Part shown: positions 4,768 to 24,192 of the stretch, in pieces | Layout: every line of letters begins with the position of its first letter | Numbering within the stretch: the stretch's first letter is position 1 | From: Candidatus Woesearchaeota archaeon | GTDB lineage: Archaea; Nanobdellota; Nanobdellia; Woesearchaeales; GW2011-AR4 | Length of the DNA stretch: 40,119 nt | Direction of reading: 5' to 3' | Assembly (NCBI GenBank): GCA_016784195.1 | Contig: JADHVE010000002.1 | Span: forward strand, 1-40,119 | Position numbers and translations under genes: made by a program | Notes under the pieces: generated by a model | What the model saw: the letters and a program-made list of their open reading frames with translations, nothing else | Told to the model about the DNA's origin: nothing | The model's database searches: none

Positions 4768-4993
4768 TTTTTATTAATATTCGACCATGTCCACACCTGA
4801 TTGTGCTTCTGTTTGTGCTTTATTGGATTATTTTTATTGGTTTTTTATTTATAGGTCATGTTTGATTATACTTTTTTAATGGTTATTTTTATTGATTATG
4901 ACACTTAATTTTTATTGGATATTTTTTAATGATTTTATTATTGAATTTTTTTAAAATCCTGCTTATTTTTATTATTAAATTAATAATACAATT

Positions 4994-5518
4994 TTATTTA
5001 TATACCTTGCTAAAAATCCCTACAAAAACCTCTTTAGGAATCTCAATGCCAGCCTCAACAAAAGCCTTTGCTAGATTATAGCCATCTTCCCTTTCATCCC
5101 CTTTGAACCTGAACCTTAACAGCCTTCCCAGAGTAAACGAGTTCAATAATCCCTCATTCAACTTTAAACTAACCTCTCTATTGCCTTTTGAAACCTTCTT
5201 ATTTAAAAAATCAACAGAAAATTCACTTTTATCAACATCATACCTTAAAAACTCCCACTCAACAAGATTTTTTAATATCTTCTCCTTGTAATTTTTATCC
5301 AGGTACGCATCAATATTATCTATTTTTAAATATTCAAAAAAATCAACATCTTTTACCTTAGAGAAAGAATAAACCCTGCCTAAATACTTCTTTACCTTCT
5401 GTCTGGAGCCTTTGCCCTTTCCCTTAACACTCCGTTTATACCATTTATTATCTACAAGGTAAGCATAAGGATATATTTTCCCTTTTTTATTCTTGATATT
5501 CTTTACACGAATAAACAT
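4994..5518 (-). CDS. Putative DNA-binding protein with IS1634-transposase-like N-terminus, no DDE domain
   Basis: MFIRVK...YAYLVDNKW...RQKVKKYLGR resembles the IS1634-family N-terminal motif; the protein is only 174 aa. Confidence 0.6.
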   Translation of the reverse strand: MFIRVKNIKNKKGKIYPYAYLVDNKWYKRSVKGKGKGSRQKVKKYLGRVYSFSKVKDVDFFEYLKIDNIDAYLDKNYKEKILKNLVEWEFLRYDVDKSEFSVDFLNKKVSKGNREVSLKLNEGLLNSFTLGRLLRFRFKGDEREDGYNLAKAFVEAGIEIPKEVFVGIFSKVYK

Positions 5519-7286: not shown

Positions 7287-7517
7287 TCACTTCTCGCCAT
7301 TTTTGCCCTTATTTTAGCTATTTTCCAGCAATTCCATCCCTCACTATTACTTAAACTTTGCTCAAAATCCTTCCAAAGATTATTGCTTTCAGAACAAATA
7401 TAAAAACCTTGCCTTTCCACAAATCTGTTTTTATTCTTCATCATCTCTCTGAATTTTTTATCTCAACTAAAAAAATTAAAGTGCTATAACTCAAGTTCTT
7501 ATTCTCTTTATAGTCTC

Positions 7518-7685
7518 ATTCCCACAACATTCCCAGCAATTCCCTCGTCGGCAAAACATTTTCTTCATTCCCATGATAATCCCACCATATTCCCAAGACT
7601 ATCCCACCATAGTCCCACTATTTATAATTTTCTGTTCTGAAGATATTCCCCCCACGTTCCCAACTTATTCCCAACACAGTCCCAA
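7518..7685 (+). repeat. Helically phased TCCC(A) repeat array, 12 copies with 11-bp period
   Basis: TCCC starts at 7520, 7531, 7541, 7569, 7580, 7591, 7602, 7613, 7647, 7658, 7669 and 7680. Confidence 0.9.
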
Positions 7686-7726
7686 AAAACGAAATATTTA
7701 AATAAACCAGATTTATTTTATTAATT

Positions 7727-8440
7727 ATGTTCTGGAACCAAAACAAGATACAAAAAAAGATTTCAAATCTGCACAATCTTTTATCACAGTCATTCGGAAA
7801 TGTAAAGCAGGATACAGGCATCATCTTCCAGTGGCTGGACTACTTCCATAAAAAAAATTTAGAGCAGGAGCAAATAATCAAGAAGCTTCAGCTTGAGCTT
7901 TCTTACATACCTAAAACAAAAGAAGACCTAAAAAGAATCCTTGACAGCTATTATTCCTACGGGCCAATTTTAGAAAAAATCAATGATCTGAAAGAAAGAA
8001 TAGACTCTTCAAAAAGGGAGCGAATTATAGAAAATGAGCCAATCCTGAGAAAAATCAGAGAGCTTGATGAGCGTATAGAAGCAGTTAAACGGCAGGAATT
8101 AAGGCATATAGAAGAGCCAAAAGCTGCTTTAGAATTAGAATCAATAAGATCCAGATTAGGAAGATTAGAGCAAAAAAAGGATGCTATAAAGGAAAAAATA
8201 ATCAAGAGAATAACCAGAAACTCCAAAGATTATGTCAAGTCAATCTTAGTATCATACATCAAGAAATATGAAAAAATATCAGCCTTGCAGTTAAAGGAAA
8301 TGATTGTTGAAGAGCAGGGACTATGTTCAAAAAGCTCTTTCTACAGGATTCTGGAAGAAATAGAAATCATGAACGAAATAGCCACAATAAAGAAAGGCAA
8401 AGAAAAGCATTATATGGCTAAGAAGATAAAACTACAATAA
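7727..8440 (+). CDS. Coiled-coil protein with probable C-terminal winged helix
   Basis: Long charged heptad region, then ISALQLKEMIVEEQGLCSKSSFYRILEEIE plus a beta-hairpin. TTTAAATA box at 7697. Confidence 0.75.
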   Translation: MFWNQNKIQKKISNLHNLLSQSFGNVKQDTGIIFQWLDYFHKKNLEQEQIIKKLQLELSYIPKTKEDLKRILDSYYSYGPILEKINDLKERIDSSKRERIIENEPILRKIRELDERIEAVKRQELRHIEEPKAALELESIRSRLGRLEQKKDAIKEKIIKRITRNSKDYVKSILVSYIKKYEKISALQLKEMIVEEQGLCSKSSFYRILEEIEIMNEIATIKKGKEKHYMAKKIKLQ

Positions 8441-8498
8441 AGCATATACTGCAAAATAGAAATATATTTAAACAAGACTAATCTAGAAATCCTCGGGG

Positions 8499-9068
8499 GT
8501 GATTGCCATTTTTAGCAATTTTTTTAAGCAGATAAAATGCTCTTTTATAAAAAAAGAGAAGAACAAGAGCATTTTACAAAAGAAAATCTTAAATGAAATT
8601 AAAAATCAGTCTGAAGAGCATTTAAGGGCTATTAATGAGAATACAAACGAGATTCAGTCCAATTATGGCTATATTTCAGAAATTGAAAATAAGATGCATA
8701 AATTAACTGAAAGGATAGACCAGATGCAGCTATTCCTGCAATCCAACAGCAACTTTGTCATGGATAGGATAGAGAATTTTGAGATAAAGCCATTGACAAG
8801 AAACGAGCAGTATGTATTCCTCGTTTTATACGCTTTGGAAGAGGAAAAAGGCTTTGTATCTTACTTGGATATAGCAAGAAAAACAGGCTTCACTGAATCT
8901 TTAGTGCTGGACTATGTAGCCTCTGTTATTGAAAAAGGAGTCCCAATAATAAAGAGATACATCAACAGCAAAGCCTATCTAAAGCTGGATAAAGACTTCA
9001 AAAGGTTGCAGACAAAAGAAAACATCTTGTGCATAGATACAGCTCAAAAAGAGCTTATCAATTTTTAA
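8499..9068 (+). CDS. Coiled-coil protein with C-terminal winged helix
   Basis: Coiled coil, then LTRNEQYVFLVLY...SYLDIARKTGFTESLVLDYVASVIEKGVPI. Confidence 0.78.
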   Translation: MIAIFSNFFKQIKCSFIKKEKNKSILQKKILNEIKNQSEEHLRAINENTNEIQSNYGYISEIENKMHKLTERIDQMQLFLQSNSNFVMDRIENFEIKPLTRNEQYVFLVLYALEEEKGFVSYLDIARKTGFTESLVLDYVASVIEKGVPIIKRYINSKAYLKLDKDFKRLQTKENILCIDTAQKELINF

Positions 9069-9092
9069 CTTTTTTTTTCTTTCTAAAACCCA

Positions 9093-9138
9093 TGAAAAAC
9101 TTCGTTTTTCAGGTATTTTAAAAATCTTTGATGTTTCA
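9093..9138. repeat. Degenerate double-hairpin palindromic element
   Basis: TGAAAAAC-TTC-GTTTTTCA followed by TAAAAATC-TTT-GATGTTTCA; similar layout to 13106-13159. Confidence 0.5.
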
Positions 9139-9389
9139 AAACTTTTAATCAATTATTAAAACTTTTATTTCATACATATTTTAAAACTTTTAGTCATTGA
9201 CAATAACTTTTATTCTATTTATTGCTATATAGAAAATAAAAGAAACCAATTTTCCTAAAAAATCAACCAAATGACTTTCAACAATAAATCTATACCTTTT
9301 TGTGCAAAATCGAGCTTCAAAAGGATATTACATCAAAAACGCAACGATTCTACTACTTTTGTAGCATTTTAAGCCCATTTTCCATTAAA

Positions 9390-9419
9390 AACACAACATT
9401 TAAATACAAGTGTTGCGTT
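9390..9419. promoter_or_regulatory. 12-6-12 inverted repeat overlapping the TATA box; candidate recombinase core or binding site
   Basis: AACACAACATTT-AAATAC-AAGTGTTGCGTT; the arms match at 10 of 12 positions. Confidence 0.65.
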
Positions 9420-9444
9420 ATTTTAAGAAAATTGGTGTTTTGGA

Positions 9445-10110
9445 ATGGCAAAAAAATTCAACGAATATTACCTTAATTGGGATGAAATAAGCCAGATAAT
9501 TACAGCAGCAAAAAATCTTAAGGAAAGTGTTGTTCTAAAAATCTTAGCTCGAACAGGTATGCGTAGATTTGAGCTTGCAAATATCAAGGTTAAAAATGTT
9601 GATTTTGAAAGAAAGAGAATATTTATTGAGAAAGGTAAGGGAGCAAGCCAAAAAGACTCAAAATCAAGAACAGTTCCTGTTGATAATGACACTCTTCAGT
9701 CAATCAAATTCTACATAGAAAGCCGAAAAACAGGCTTTTTAATACAAAGCAACAACAAAATCAAGGACGGCATAAGTTTGAGCCAGATCAACAGAATTGT
9801 AGATAACTGTGCAAAAAAAGCCAATATAAAAAACCCCAATCCTAAGCTCAAAAACATGAACCCTCATATATTCCGCCATAGCTTCTCCAGGCTTAGCTTA
9901 GCAGCAGGAATACCCTTCAACATGGTGCAGAGAATAGCAGGCCATGCTGATGCCCGAACCACTCTACAGATGTACGGCATTCCCTCTATAACCGATACAC
10001 AGCAGCTATACGAGGAAAAGCTCGTTGAAAGGTTCAAAGAAAAGCCAAAGAGCAAAGAGGATGTTAAATTGACTAAGTTTACAGATAAAAACAATCAAAA
10101 ATCTTCTTGA
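9445..10110 (+). CDS. Xer-like tyrosine recombinase, catalytic domain only
   Basis: TGMRRFEL (R), GKG (K), HIFRHSF (HxxR), AGH and TTLQMY (Y) are all intact. 221 aa with no N-terminal core-binding domain. Confidence 0.92.
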   Translation: MAKKFNEYYLNWDEISQIITAAKNLKESVVLKILARTGMRRFELANIKVKNVDFERKRIFIEKGKGASQKDSKSRTVPVDNDTLQSIKFYIESRKTGFLIQSNNKIKDGISLSQINRIVDNCAKKANIKNPNPKLKNMNPHIFRHSFSRLSLAAGIPFNMVQRIAGHADARTTLQMYGIPSITDTQQLYEEKLVERFKEKPKSKEDVKLTKFTDKNNQKSS

Positions 10111-10158
10111 TATCCCTTAAACCAAAACAAATTTAAACAATCTCCTTAATTAATAAGT

Positions 10159-10851
10159 ATGGCAATCCAGATAATCCTGTTGGCGATATTAGGAATTCTT
10201 CTATTCTTACTGTTCTGGAAAATAACAAAAATGATTCTGAAAGCAATAACATTCACATTCTTAATCTTGTTATTATTGCTATCAATAACCGGATTTTTCG
10301 TCTACAAAGATATCAAAGACTTCCAGAATAATATTGGAGAAAAGCCTGTTCTGTTTGTTTTAACAGATCAAAATAAAGTCCTAACAGCAATAAGCATGGA
10401 AAAATTAGAACTTGAAGAAGGTTTTTTTGATAAAATATCAGAAGCAACATCCCCTGAAGAAATAGAAAAGCTATCATCTTACTATCAAAATAAAGACTAC
10501 AGCTCAATGCTCAACAACAATTACAAACTGGTATTAACCGACATAAGATTCATAGAAAATGGGTTAAAAGACAGCTTTGTTATAGGCGATAAAAGCGAAT
10601 TAGGAAAAGGCTTAACAAAAAAAGAAATCATTGATGTTCTAAAAGCAGAAAACCCTTTGAAAATCTCAGATTTTGAAGAAACAAACCCGGATAAAATAAG
10701 GAACTTCTTCTTTATCTTTTCTTTTGCAACAATTATCAAAGAAAATGGTCCTTTTTTCATGATAAAAGAGATGAAAAACAACAACATAGAAATCTATAAA
10801 GAGCCTTTCAGCCTCAAATTAATAAAGAATATCCCAAAAACTAAGAACTGA
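10159..10851 (+). CDS. Hypothetical membrane-anchored protein
   Basis: Two N-terminal hydrophobic helices followed by a soluble domain. Confidence 0.7.
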   Translation: MAIQIILLAILGILLFLLFWKITKMILKAITFTFLILLLLLSITGFFVYKDIKDFQNNIGEKPVLFVLTDQNKVLTAISMEKLELEEGFFDKISEATSPEEIEKLSSYYQNKDYSSMLNNNYKLVLTDIRFIENGLKDSFVIGDKSELGKGLTKKEIIDVLKAENPLKISDFEETNPDKIRNFFFIFSFATIIKENGPFFMIKEMKNNNIEIYKEPFSLKLIKNIPKTKN

Positions 10852-11173
10852 TACAAACACCCATCTCATCTGCTATTTTGCCCGTTAAACGGCATTTAAA
10901 GCCCTCTGGACAGCCAAAACCAGCTATACCACCACATTCACACTGCACTTGACACATTTCAATACAGAAATCAGCATCTGTTCCACCACAAGGGCTTCCG
11001 CATTCATTCCATTTGCCATTAACTTCTCTACATCTTTGTTTAGTAATACCATTAAAAGCTGTTTCTTCATCCATACCAGTATCATCTTCAGAAGGCTCAT
11101 GCACAACAGTTTCTTCCACACATCCAGCCAGAAAACCCATCAAAATTATTAAAAACAAGCCTGTTTTTTTCAT
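10841..11173 (-). CDS. Cysteine-rich lipoprotein
   Basis: Signal peptide with LAGC lipobox; 10 Cys in the C-terminal domain. Confidence 0.78.
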   Translation of the reverse strand: MKKTGLFLIILMGFLAGCVEETVVHEPSEDDTGMDEETAFNGITKQRCREVNGKWNECGSPCGGTDADFCIEMCQVQCECGGIAGFGCPEGFKCRLTGKIADEMGVCISS

Positions 11174-21252: not shown

Positions 21253-23721
21253 ATGATAAAGAATAAAAAAAGAAAAAAAAATAAGAAAAAACAATATAAG
21301 GGCTTTATTGATTTTATAAAGCAAAATAAAGTACTTATAATTATAATAGCCATACTACTCTTAATCATTCTATTTTCTTTTGGAACAAAGATATTTCTTT
21401 TGACCAACTTCCTGCTGGGAAATGATATAATCGTGAAGTTAAATGCAGACAAGGAATTCCTTTTTCTGGAAAGAAACCAGGAAGAAACTATTGTCTTTGA
21501 AGCATCTGTAACCACAAACCCATTCTGCAAAGCAGTCTGCAGCTCCACATTCAAGGATATAAGCAAAAACACTATTATCGAGCAGGACAAATTTACATTA
21601 AAGCCTTCGATCAATCTACAAAAAAAATACACATTAAAAGCAACGAGCTTAGGTTATGGTATAGAATTATACAGCTTCAGTATGGATTGCAGCAGCCCCA
21701 GAACATTTCTCTGCCACACTGATGAAGAATTAACAAAAAGAAACATCTTAATCACAGTAGAATACCATCTAAACTATGAAGACAAACAATTAAAATCTGA
21801 ATTAGAACCAGATTTAGAAACCTTAAAAACAAAATTAAGTGAATTGGGTGGCAAAAAACAGCTTTTTGAAAACATAATCTATCAACTAAATGAATCAATA
21901 ATTCTAAATGAAAATTTAAATATCAATAATATTCAAAACAGATTTAATGAACATATCAAAGAAATAAAAACCTTCCAGGATATCTGGGAAAAACAGGATT
22001 ATGCTCTTCTTGCCTTGGAGCTGGAAAACTTAAATAAAGAGATTTCTGAAACAGAAAAACAATTTGAAGGGTTTAATAAAAGCATATTGGCAGTTATTTA
22101 CCCTTACAGTGTTATTGTTGAAGAAATAGGCAAAGCAGAAGATCAATTAAGGCAACTTTATCTTTTTGCTCTTATCAACCAAGAAAAAGCTCCTGAAATC
22201 AACAGAACGATTAAGGAATTTAATTCAGCATTAACCCTGTTTAAACAAAAAAGCAGCCTTGAGCAAAAGAAAAAGATTGTGGGGGGCATAATGGATGAAA
22301 CAAAAGACATTACATCATCCACTAACAAAGAATTCAAAAAAGAAGTTCTTAAGCAGGAGCTTCAGCTTGACATTGAATATGATACATTATGCAAAATATC
22401 CGGCTCATGCACGCCCCGCCCTTCAATAGAAGAGCGCTCTAAACAAAAAATATTTGAGTTAAACACAACATGCAGGAACATTGACAAATTCAGGGACAAT
22501 CTTCTATTGTTGAATTCTTCAATGAAAAATGCATATGTTAAGGAAAAATACCTGGATAATGAAGACTTCATACAGAATATAAGTGCAAAGGTAAAAAACA
22601 TCAGGCAAAACGTTACCGAGGAGTATCTAAATAGCTTGCCTTCAAATGAAGAAAATACAGAAATTATTCAGAAATTATTAGTCAGAAATGACCTTTCTGA
22701 AACAAAAGAATACCCTGAATATGATCTCATCCCGATTATGATTAGTGAATTAATAAAGCAAATGCCTCTGAGTTGTTATTCAGCTAATCCAAAAATTGAT
22801 TTAGTTAAATCTCCAGGCATTACTAAGATAACAATAAACAAATCAGCACAAATTCCTCTAGAGATTGAATTTAAAGAGCCATTGCCTCAATGCTGCGCTT
22901 TTGGCAAGTGTGAAGTTTGCTGTGTTTCAGAAGAGTGCAGGGAAAAAAACGATGTAGTAATATTTTTGCATGGGCATTCGCTAAACAAAGACACATCTGC
23001 TGAATACAGCCTGGATGCATTTAACAAGATACAGGAAAAGCTGGAAGAAGCCAACTACCTGAACGGGGGGGCAATTTCTACGTATACAGAACGTGACTCT
23101 CCAAGAGATATATGGAATAAACTGCCTGTTCCTTTGACAATCAAGGCAAGTTATTATTTTGACATCTTCAGAGAGCCGGAAAACTATATTGTCGTTCAGA
23201 CAAAGAGCGAAAATATAAACACTTATGCCCTAAGGCTGAAAGAGCTTATTGAAACTGTCCAATATAAAACAGGCAAACAAAAAGTCATTATCATTGCCCA
23301 TAGCATGGGCGGCTTAGTTGCAAGGCGCTACATCCAGATTTTTGGAGAAGATAAAATAGAAAAATTGATTTTGATAGGAACTCCAAACAAAGGCATTGCA
23401 GGGAATACTGCAGATTACTGCCCTTGGATAGGGGAACAGCTTGAATGCAGGGACATGAATTCTGATAGCTTATTTATAAACAAGATGAACCAGCAAAAAA
23501 ACTTTGAAATCCCTGTTTATAACTTGGTTGGCACTGGCTGCAAAATGGACTCTGATAAGGGTGACGGCATTGTACTGGAAAAAAACGCAATGATGGATAA
23601 CGCAAAAAACTTTATAATCAACGGCACATGCAAGGGTCTTGAAAAACTACATACTAAATTACTGGATATTGATACATACCCTGAAGTTTATTTTGTTATC
23701 CAGGAAGCTCTGAAAGAATAA
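21253..23721 (+). CDS. Membrane-anchored coiled-coil protein with C-terminal alpha/beta hydrolase
   Basis: N-terminal TM, long helical region, CCAFGKCEVCC cluster, then FLHGH, AHSMGG, GTPN and GDGIV. Confidence 0.82.
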   Translation: MIKNKKRKKNKKKQYKGFIDFIKQNKVLIIIIAILLLIILFSFGTKIFLLTNFLLGNDIIVKLNADKEFLFLERNQEETIVFEASVTTNPFCKAVCSSTFKDISKNTIIEQDKFTLKPSINLQKKYTLKATSLGYGIELYSFSMDCSSPRTFLCHTDEELTKRNILITVEYHLNYEDKQLKSELEPDLETLKTKLSELGGKKQLFENIIYQLNESIILNENLNINNIQNRFNEHIKEIKTFQDIWEKQDYALLALELENLNKEISETEKQFEGFNKSILAVIYPYSVIVEEIGKAEDQLRQLYLFALINQEKAPEINRTIKEFNSALTLFKQKSSLEQKKKIVGGIMDETKDITSSTNKEFKKEVLKQELQLDIEYDTLCKISGSCTPRPSIEERSKQKIFELNTTCRNIDKFRDNLLLLNSSMKNAYVKEKYLDNEDFIQNISAKVKNIRQNVTEEYLNSLPSNEENTEIIQKLLVRNDLSETKEYPEYDLIPIMISELIKQMPLSCYSANPKIDLVKSPGITKITINKSAQIPLEIEFKEPLPQCCAFGKCEVCCVSEECREKNDVVIFLHGHSLNKDTSAEYSLDAFNKIQEKLEEANYLNGGAISTYTERDSPRDIWNKLPVPLTIKASYYFDIFREPENYIVVQTKSENINTYALRLKELIETVQYKTGKQKVIIIAHSMGGLVARRYIQIFGEDKIEKLILIGTPNKGIAGNTADYCPWIGEQLECRDMNSDSLFINKMNQQKNFEIPVYNLVGTGCKMDSDKGDGIVLEKNAMMDNAKNFIINGTCKGLEKLHTKLLDIDTYPEVYFVIQEALKE

Positions 23722-23786
23722 AAATTTGAAGATATAGAATAAAAAAATTTATAATCTCTCCAAGACTTCTTTTATCTGTTTTTATT

Positions 23787-23909
23787 GCCAGGATGACGGA
23801 GCTCGGTTAATCGTGTTCGCCTCGAATAGCATAAATGTTTTTCATTTATAATTTTCAAAAGAGAGCGAATGTCCTTCGGGACACGCAGGTTCAAATCCTG
23901 CTCCTGGCG
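23787..23909 (+). tRNA. tRNA-Ser(CGA) with an intron at 37/38 (about 23827-23863)
   Basis: GCCAGGA/TCCTGGC acceptor, TTCGC/GCGAA anticodon stem, TGTCC-TTCG-GGACA variable arm. The BHB is weak. Confidence 0.88.
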
Positions 23910-23916
23910 TAAAATA

Positions 23917-24192
23917 ATGAAACTCAAAAATATTTTTTTATTGTTAATACTTTTGATTCTAATTACAGGATCCACTATAGTGTGGGTTAGTTACCTCGAC
24001 TGCTCTGAAAAAACTTCTAAAAAAGAAATACCAAACAATGCAGGTTATAAAATGATCAAATTCGAAATAGAAGAAAAACCACCTAAGGTAACTCCATACA
24101 AACAAAAAACTGATTCTATCAGATATGTTAAGCATATTTACGAATATTTTGAAAAAATAGAAAAAGCCCGAGAAAGATCAATAAAAAAATAA
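23917..24192 (+). CDS. Small membrane-anchored or secreted protein
   Basis: Start moved to MKLKNIFLLL because the upstream part of the track ORF is tRNA; hydrophobic N-terminus. Confidence 0.6.
   Translation: MKLKNIFLLLILLILITGSTIVWVSYLDCSEKTSKKEIPNNAGYKMIKFEIEEKPPKVTPYKQKTDSIRYVKHIYEYFEKIEKARERSIKK

Follow-up and report, generated by a model that had tools for sequence, protein, structure and literature searches.

Two plasmid-borne partition loci, the type II ParR/parC of R1 and the type III TubR/tubC of pBtoxis, have short direct repeats, set one helical turn (11 or 12 bp) apart, clustered at the promoter of the gene for their own binder, and in the bacterial single-recombinase modules XerS/difSL and XerH/difH the recombinase gene lies beside its site. 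Among Archaea, dif sites of Sulfolobales lie close to xerA (PMC2958812), and at dif of Thermococcus kodakarensis the nucleoid-associated protein TrmBL2, which forms filaments, stalls SMC and establishes a domain boundary (PMC11840125). Here we describe a locus found in the 40,119-bp contig JADHVE010000002.1 of a Candidatus Woesearchaeota archaeon, the whole of which was analysed and is referred to below as the window. This locus is a lineage-specific module of the chromosome of Woesearchaeota-type DPANN archaea, consisting of two proteins with DNA-binding folds and of new families, P1 and P2, and of two private sets of DNA sites, a phased direct-repeat array in front of P1 and a palindrome cluster behind P2; beside them lies a slot occupied by a recombinase gene.

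DPANN archaea have tiny genomes and are mostly uncultivated, and the organisation, resolution and segregation of their chromosomes form the gap that this module addresses. Our preferred explanation, which we hold with about even confidence and which derives from the analysis as a whole, is that P1 and P2 make up a self-regulating nucleoprotein unit like ParR/parC or TubR/tubC, situated beside a chromosome-resolution site at which, in this genome, a short recombinase with an inverted repeat termed Site II would have displaced XerA/dif. No description of the module was found in the literature searched, supplements not being covered, and a review of archaeal tyrosine recombinases (PMC8371274) makes no mention of DPANN, Woesearchaeota or core-binding.

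Two proteins of new families and their private DNA sites

The window corresponds to contig C67 of the source genome, G000 (1.09 Mb, 33.7% G+C, 73 contigs), whose assembly is 88.8% complete. A first-pass annotation of the same DNA had placed at 7518..10110 three co-oriented genes, for two proteins with coiled coils and winged helix-turn-helix domains and for a Xer-like recombinase lacking its core-binding domain, along with a phased array and three distinct motif sets. This inventory holds good: open reading frames (ORFs) for P1, then P2, then the recombinase run in one direction at the places given (Table 1), and the motif sets are the TCCC[AC] array, the palindromes following P2 and two inverted repeats, sites I and II, in front of the recombinase gene.

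AlphaFold models computed from alignments of 42 (P1) and 40 (P2) homologues show long helices and a winged helix in both proteins, as the annotation had it. In the P1 model (predicted local distance difference test, pLDDT, 84.5) helices at residues 3-59, 78-124 and 133-164 precede a winged helix at 167-231, and in that of P2 (pLDDT 80) one long helix (2-83) is followed by a winged helix (101-163) and two short C-terminal helices. Neither protein matched a curated family of Pfam or NCBIfam above cut-off or an informative PHROG; P2 reached 19.6 bits against Pfam HTH_24, under the cut-off of 21.9, and so falls short of MarR/HTH_24 membership. Fold comparisons (Foldseek against PDB, VIA-align), which barely probed the helical parts of the two proteins, returned generic winged helices for P1 (MecI, the cullin WHB domain, Rpa2 and Hop2) and MarR/ArsR proteins, AspA and Cdc6/Orc winged-helix domains (WHDs), all tied at Z 8-9.3, for P2, whose model puts it in the MarR/ArsR fold class (Z about 8-9). 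The P1 recognition helix, LCSKSSFYR, is invariant in 21 of 21 loci. We collected 910 homologues of P1 and 345 of P2, and a search of 1.84 billion proteins with a P1 profile matched 497 representative clusters (E<=1e-3); the Protein Atlas returned only unnamed DPANN clusters for P1, and among 2.9 million viral contigs the profile found no relative. The nearest homologues of the module proteins carry the source names Candidatus Woesearchaeota or Nanoarchaeota.

Two other identities were considered for the pair and rejected. P1 and P2 show no detectable similarity of the kind expected of paralogues (BLASTP E 0.32; hhalign probability 4%). Nor are they ScpA and ScpB, since a canonical ScpA (C1:5358-5990) and an SMC protein (on C46) are encoded elsewhere in G000; no SMC_ScpA (PF02616) match was seen in P1 or P2 at E<=0.1. 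A complex prediction for P1 with P2 gave a score of 0.02 and a mark of 0.32 and is counted neither way.

The array in front of P1 comprises 11 copies of TCCC[AC] on the + strand at 7520-7680, with successive spacings of 11, 38, 11, 11, 11, 11, 34, 11, 11 and 11, grouped into three clusters (approximately 7516-7545, 7565-7617 and 7643-7687); 11- and 22-bp periods were also called by Tandem Repeats Finder and by a further repeat finder. Ten of the 45 + strand TCCCA of the window are packed into 200 bp, against 0.65 per kb on each strand across the genome, and five or more TCCCA occur within 200 bp nowhere else in the 1.09 Mb, so that the phased array claimed for this locus is not only real but the sole cluster of its kind in G000. 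Its last repeat abuts a TTTAAATA element, nearly letter-identical among relatives, whose position and letters suggest a B recognition element (BRE) and TATA box forming the promoter of P1. Boxes of the CGTCGGCAAAAC type occur in relatives at the position matching the one between clusters 1 and 2, including the rearranged array of genome G051, and in the spacer between clusters 2 and 3, where relatives have a TTTAAA-type element and a TCGTC box, the A/T element of this genome may, to judge from its letters, be a second promoter.

To follow these features beyond one genome, about 15 kb around P1-P2 was fetched from 20 relatives and the ORFs were clustered, giving 21 loci with the present one. 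Over 19 loci the array amounts to 200 units with the consensus YAKTCCCA plus three variable bases. Of the short spacings, 105 of 132 are exactly 11; of the longer ones, 21 of 45 are multiples of 11 and 31 of 45 fall within 1 of a multiple, which indicates that the clusters are mutually in phase. At least six TCYCA (range 6-14) lie within 300 nt 5' of the called P1 start in 17 of the 20 relatives' loci, against a background of 0.5-1.0 per 300 nt; a further locus, L048, carries 15 motif copies inside an over-long ORF call, and in G049 and G051, where the locus is rearranged and P1 and P2 are divergent, the motif cluster stands just 3' of P1, partly as inverted pairs. The array thus travels with P1 across relatives. 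The inverted pairs are formed by TGGGAC beside GTCCCA and were seen at L060:8410-8680 (G051) and L059:8540-8660 (G049), in genomes of two families.

The second site set follows P2. The near-palindromic AAAACTTTTA-type motif has 28 exact copies in the genome, of which the four at 9138-9212 form the only cluster, and 17 of the 21 loci have an exact AAAA[C/G]TTTTA core no more than 260 nt past the P2 stop, the other four having one-mismatch forms. Since the array and the palindromes each form the sole cluster of their motif in the genome, both are better regarded as private cis sites than as parts of a regulon. Palindromes of this type were also seen on another contig of G000: one AAAACTTTTAAT at C55:39972 lies 0.8 kb from a Cdc6-like gene (C55:40817-41809), and two TTTCNATATNGAAA palindromes, 42 bp apart, lie at C55:46116-46171, 4.3 kb from the same gene; these copies may be origin-related.

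Of 61 related genomes, 40 have P1 and 47 have P2, in single copies, and the two genes are adjacent wherever the P1 match is strong. P2 was present in 26 of 27 further genomes sampled from the same order, and weaker matches to its C-terminal part occurred in 51 of 173 genomes from other orders of the class. Throughout the order the P1-P2 pair, the phased array and the palindrome behind P2 are conserved, each in a single copy. They stand in a recurrent gene order: leftward, genes for a RecJ/Cdc45-like protein, UppS, a 174-aa protein of unknown family, (AMMECR1), RpoL and a methyltransferase; rightward, P1 and P2, followed by genes for a recombinase, a small Cys-rich protein and PAC2. This order, from the RecJ-like gene to PAC2, recurs within the family and in several other families, so that the possibility that the genes are unlinked in relatives, on which the first-pass annotation had staked its proposal, does not apply; such housekeeping synteny marks a chromosomal, vertically kept locus rather than a phage or plasmid island. 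The same arrangement was found on Logan contigs from three studies. Two weak joints in one run, X4 (7292>7666 and 7277>11427, with sides of 29 and 20 letters), were not trusted.

The recombinase slot and its occupants

A recombinase gene lies 3' of P2 in 20 of the 21 loci, a tyrosine recombinase in 16 and a member of a serine-recombinase cluster in four (two of these four were scanned and matched Pfam Resolvase at 2e-42 and 6e-43); in the remaining locus the contig stops 1.9 kb past P2. Within the same family, 22 of 26 P2-bearing genomes have a recombinase within about 3 kb of P2 (19 tyrosine, counting the unpublished G012, and three serine), and in three of the four others a contig ends within 2 kb. 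In other families of the order a recombinase is near P2 in 8 of 17 informative genomes, and in three more the contig ends within 0.6 kb. The link between P2 and the recombinase persists in L059 and L062 despite rearrangements that break the left-hand synteny.

The usual occupant of the slot is a full-length enzyme convergent with P2. Slot enzymes of relatives score 255.6 and 281.5 bits on the NCBIfam model recomb_XerA_Arch, for which the cut-off is 220, and a dif-like site, GTKCGYATAA-N6-TTATRCGMAC matched at 16 or more of 20 positions, lies within 400 nt upstream of the full-length enzyme in 9 of 12 loci and within 100 nt upstream in 7 of 12; the chance level, taken from shuffled copies of the G000 genome, is 3-7 such sites per 1.09 Mb. 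In its ATAA-6-TTAT core layout the site agrees with the published Thermococcus dif (PMC11840125). The alternatives to XerA in the slot are two short tyrosine clades, unrelated, or a serine resolvase. Two slots with a 245-aa serine recombinase keep a dif-like site, at L045:5975-6000 (G002; 17/20) and L063:5860-5885 (G037; 16/20), which may be the remnant of a displaced XerA/dif pair. Next to the relocated XerA-type genes of G001, G045 and G058, three genomes whose slots hold a short recombinase, no site of at least 16/20 was found in 2-2.9 kb, some of these stretches being cut by contig ends.

In the present genome the slot holds a short tyrosine recombinase of 221 aa. It belongs to the tyrosine recombinase superfamily (Pfam Phage_integrase, PF00589, at residues 10-177 with 97.8 bits against a cut-off of 27.1) and carries R40, K73, H141, R144, H167 and Y177, which we take to be the residues of the catalytic motifs. 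Its 123.4 bits on recomb_XerA_Arch (NF040815) fall short of the 220 cut-off and cover model positions 94-252 of 263, its closest solved relatives are the catalytic halves of archaeal XerA, and a Pfam scan of the protein found no N-terminal SAM-like or core-binding domain: it is, as annotated, a Xer-like enzyme reduced to its catalytic domain. Its family counts 166 proteins at E<=1e-10, and among the 120 matches listed lengths range over 143-351 aa and are mostly about 202-226 aa; a plasmid collection searched with it yielded only integrases at about 31% identity.

The gene forms part of a cassette that is not shared with the same-genus genome G001, whose slot is filled by another short recombinase (33% identity). 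Four of 60 relatives, from three families, carry an orthologue of the 221-aa enzyme (76-83% identity), always beside P2, and in G017, G019 and G058 the orientation of the cassette is reversed. As P1 and P2 of the orthologue-bearing genomes are only about 40-55% identical to those of G000, the recombinase cassette has moved horizontally. Site I is a single copy in the assembly. Site II overlaps a TTTAAATA element in front of the recombinase gene, is dissimilar to the dif-like consensus of relatives, and has no further copy in the assembled genome at up to two arm mismatches or up to six whole-site mismatches. From its sequence, Site II is a candidate for both the core recombination site and the operator. 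Contigs of the three studies, which can miss rare forms, showed no joint of excision or inversion at the cassette. In run X4 the recombinase gene (window 9401-9861) appears as several short contigs with 10-12 differences each and clean flanks, which suggests that strain-level variation is concentrated in the cassette.

A XerA orthologue is encoded outside the slot in G000 (C30:22898-23758) and reaches 227.8 bits on recomb_XerA_Arch. Its identity to the XerAs of the slot is 45-49%, and to a second paralogue, which relatives encode elsewhere, 35%. No dif-like site was recognisable beside the C30 gene, only the left half-site, the contig ending 272 nt upstream; a search of the whole assembly returned one site of at least 16/20 against 3-7 in shuffles, nothing above chance. 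Beyond the half-site (C30, about 22898-24030) an ORF end resembling the end of a transposase gene is followed by the end of the contig, and an insertion sequence may have displaced or broken this xerA/dif.

The other genes of the window are housekeeping genes (RpoL, EF-1alpha, S10, UppS, the RecJ/Cdc45-like protein and PAC2), and family scans of the window proteins found no ParA, Cdc6, phage or transfer family, which bears out the setting first described for the locus. No gene for a ParM (actin-like), TubZ (tubulin-like) or ParA motor is present in the window or in the conserved neighbourhood of the 20 relatives. A tRNA search of the window found none, and an Rfam scan gave a single match far below the gathering level and no family at that level. 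The 174-aa protein, likewise matched in the Protein Atlas to nothing but unnamed DPANN clusters, is possibly a further component of the module, and its gene adjoins P1 directly in the rearranged locus of G049. The Cys-rich protein family recurs near the slot in 11 of the 21 loci and is often duplicated.

Table 1. Features of the P1-P2 locus and its surroundings, in window coordinates
Feature	Position	Strand	Description	Basis or occurrence
Degenerate tandem repeats	4819-4953		13-14 nt period, TTTATTGGATTATT-type unit, ~6 + 3.5 copies	just 3' of 174-aa gene
Unknown-family protein	4994-5518	-	174 aa	same block in 19/21 loci
Phased direct-repeat array	7516..7690	+	unit YAKTCCCA + 3 variable bases, 11-bp period	
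CG-containing box	7546..7557	+	CGTCGGCAAAAC type, between clusters 1 and 2	sequence
TATA-like A/T element	7618..7632	+	spacer of clusters 2/3	read from sequence
Putative BRE/TATA of P1	7685..7704	+	TTTAAATA element	abuts last repeat, ~25 nt 5' of ATG
P1	7727..8440	+	237 aa, helical, with C-terminal winged helix	ORF and AlphaFold model
TATA-like element of P2	8463..8476	+	~25 nt 5' of P2 start; putative promoter	read from sequence
P2	8499..9068	+	189 aa, GTG start	ORF and AlphaFold model
P2-downstream palindromes	9138..9212	.	four copies, near-palindromic AAAACTTTTA-type	family consensus GATTAAAA[G/C]TTTTAATC
Recombinase cassette	9244..10118	+	unshared with same-genus G001	homology ends ~9243, resumes ~10119
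Site I	9338..9368	.	inverted repeat, CAACA/TGTTG-type arms, right arm partly degenerate here	5/5 cassettes
Site II	9390..9419	.	12-6-12 inverted repeat, 10/12 arm positions symmetric	5/5 cassettes
Short tyrosine recombinase	9445..10110	+	221 aa, Xer-derived catalytic domain and Lys-rich tail	Pfam, NCBIfam
Small Cys-rich protein	10841-11173	-	signal-peptide-like N-terminus	no Pfam family

Proposed role and rival explanations

Under the explanation that we prefer, P1 would coat the phased array as a co-operative filament, as ParR does parC or TubR does tubC, a mode of binding suggested by its invariant recognition helix and by long helices suited to oligomerising, and P2 would bind the palindromes as a dimer. 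We match each protein to its sites in this way because an invariant helix of P1 goes with an invariant repeat and a dimer-type fold of P2 with a palindrome. P1 and P2 would repress their own promoters, co-operative binding abutting the promoter shutting off P1 (and P2), and would build a fixed nucleoprotein landmark beside the resolution site, acting there as an architectural element or a roadblock, as TrmBL2 does at the Thermococcus dif. In this genome the short recombinase and Site II would constitute a self-contained, self-repressing resolution-type unit that ousted XerA/dif from the slot; such a unit fits better than an invertase or than an integrase with a resident partner site, given one site per chromosome (in an incomplete assembly), beside the recombinase and over its promoter.

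As to the part played by the recombinase, the first-pass annotation had counted it as a component of the module, for which P1 and P2 might supply the specificity missing from a domain-less enzyme. The linkage is upheld, the fixed short partner is not, for the occupant varies between XerA, two short clades and a serine resolvase. With the slot recombinase interchangeable, the short enzyme has no dedicated partners in P1 and P2, and because most relatives pair the module with a complete XerA, the supply of specificity cannot be its conserved role; conserved specificity subunits are therefore unlikely, and P1 and P2 may lend specificity to the short enzyme of this genome alone. A broader version, in which P1, P2 and the array are a dedicated organiser, that is, a polar landmark that stalls SMC or forks or else positions or synapses the resolution site, into which recombinase-plus-site units plug and which delivers or holds DNA for the catalytic-only enzyme, seems to us rather doubtful; the functional likenesses proposed for it are MatP/matS, RTP/Ter and TrmBL2 at dif.

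Several points tell against the unit that we propose. A true partition system is not supported, since a motor NTPase of the ParA, ParM or TubZ type is missing from the neighbourhood. The fold matches of P1 and P2 are generic winged helices only, tied within about 1 Z unit (Z 8-9.6), and the pairing of proteins with sites comes solely from their parallel conservation. Outside the family 9 of the 17 informative genomes have no recombinase near P2, and within it, where the block from the RecJ-like gene to PAC2 is syntenic, the module may owe its place beside the slot to inherited gene order, with no function in common. The genomes being kin, the counts over relatives are not independent of one another, and the unassembled DNA of G000 could harbour a canonical dif or another copy of Site II.

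The main rival takes P1 and P2 for an ordinary autoregulated pair of transcription factors, with the array and palindromes as operators and the slot adjacent through inherited order, and we consider it possible, if clearly the less probable of the two. It is consistent with an array that stops right at the BRE/TATA of P1, with the MarR/ArsR-like fold of P2, with the synteny of the entire block in the family and with the drop in recombinase linkage outside it, but 11-15 phased sites far exceed the usual need of an operator, the motif cluster of G049 and G051 lies 3' of P1 and thus off its promoter, neither motif forms a second cluster in the genome, and the link between P2 and the recombinase outlives the rearrangements of L059 and L062. 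Were P1 and P2 mere autoregulators, the interest of the locus would be confined to a neat case of phased operators. That the locus is a replication origin, or resembles one, with the repeats as iterons for P1 and with P2 as a Cdc6-WHD-like origin binder, is improbable. The winged helix of P2 does align with Cdc6/Orc WHDs at Z 8.6-9.3, yet these rows are tied with those of ArsR and MarR proteins, less than 1 Z apart; a weak PHROG match of P2 to 'replication initiation protein' (E 0.019), the RecJ/Cdc45-like gene in the syntenic block and the divergence of transcription at the array point the same way. The origin reading is nevertheless disfavoured, since in the genomes checked the Orc1/Cdc6 genes are far from the module, either on other contigs or, when on the same contig, 31 to about 400 kb from P2. 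No initiator gene lies beside the repeats, origin recognition box (ORB) motifs themselves not having been searched for. GC skew and ORF-strand profiles of five relatives' contigs and this one track local gene orientation, with no consistent skew extremum at the module (6 contigs), and in closed genomes the module keeps no consistent angle to Cdc6. Its usual neighbour, moreover, is XerA with a dif-like site, and in Thermococcales dif marks the termination region (PMC2958812). The annotated prospect of a replication, segregation or dimer-resolution locus is supported in part: the module adjoins the resolution slot, and an origin is unlikely.

We regard it as very improbable that the region in its entirety is what remains of an integrated plasmid or provirus, a mobile element with its integrase, iterons and regulators. 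A tyrosine recombinase gene does adjoin repeats, the short recombinase is patchy and 76-83% identical across families, its cassette occurs in both orientations and a same-genus genome has a different recombinase at the same place; against this, P1, P2 and both site sets are single-copy and vertically conserved inside housekeeping synteny, the P1 profile has no relative among the viral contigs, phage and transfer genes were not found, and only the 0.9-kb recombinase cassette behaves as mobile, with neither excision nor inversion joints on the contigs of the three studies. Scarcely any credence is left, finally, for an invertase of the FimB/FimE kind that would flip a promoter segment between the arms of a 21-nt inverted repeat (9240-9260 / 9421-9441). 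FimB and FimE are short, catalytic-only tyrosine invertases, which the recombinase resembles in length and architecture, and the repeat, 86% complementary, brackets 160 bp just 5' of its gene; however, the arms sit in sequence that is unconserved among five orthologous cassettes, a single orientation was seen on the contigs of the three studies, though contigs drop rare variants, and the score on NF007370 was 28.2 bits against a cut-off of 221. With that low score and no inverted form on contigs, membership of the FimB/FimE type (NF007370 / NF007371) was rejected.

Taken as a self-regulating unit beside a resolution site, the module can be studied in vitro without cultivation, from its two conserved proteins and two defined sets of sites to the resolution site next to them. 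The slot shows non-orthologous replacement of the resolving recombinase, its occupants being XerA, two short tyrosine clades and a serine resolvase, which points to swappable resolution modules in Archaea, and a large family of catalytic-domain-only tyrosine recombinases is exposed, raising the question of how such enzymes find their sites.

Relation to described systems

The locus resembles ParR/parC and TubR/tubC in that repeats spaced by a helical turn abut or flank the promoter of the binder gene and in that the array is private to the locus. Of the features that define type II and III partition loci, phased repeats at the promoter of their own operon are present (11 repeats, ending at the P1 TATA), and an adjacent ParM or TubZ motor gene is absent. 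P1 and P2 are winged-helix proteins, as is TubR, which figures among the fold matches of P1 only as a weak row (3m8e, E 0.2), whereas ParR is a ribbon-helix-helix protein, and neither ParR nor TubR has the long helical regions of P1 and P2. Further differences are that no motor gene occurs here, that the locus is chromosomal and archaeal, and that it employs two proteins and two kinds of site. AspA, the centromere binder of Sulfolobus pNOB8 (PDB 5k5o, 4rs8), is likewise an archaeal winged-helix protein, one that spreads along DNA outward from a palindrome; its Foldseek rows rank with the best for P2 (E 2e-3 to 4e-3), no better than those of MarR-family repressors, but it is plasmid-borne and works with ParA and ParB, which are absent here.

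The comparison with TrmBL2 at dif concerns function: G000 also has SMC and ScpA, and the role proposed for P1 and P2 would likewise be exercised beside a resolution site. TrmBL2 differs in acting genome-wide as a nucleoid protein and in having no phased array of its own, and P1 and P2 did not appear as TrmB-family proteins in any scan. With XerA/dif, XerS/difSL and XerH/difH the locus has in common a recombinase gene beside its own candidate site, an inverted repeat with a 6-bp spacer. The short enzyme departs from archaeal XerA in having no N-terminal domain, in a site unlike the dif-like consensus and in its horizontal spread, yet the slot enzymes of relatives pass the XerA model, and the catalytic domain of the short enzyme itself is nearest to solved archaeal XerA.

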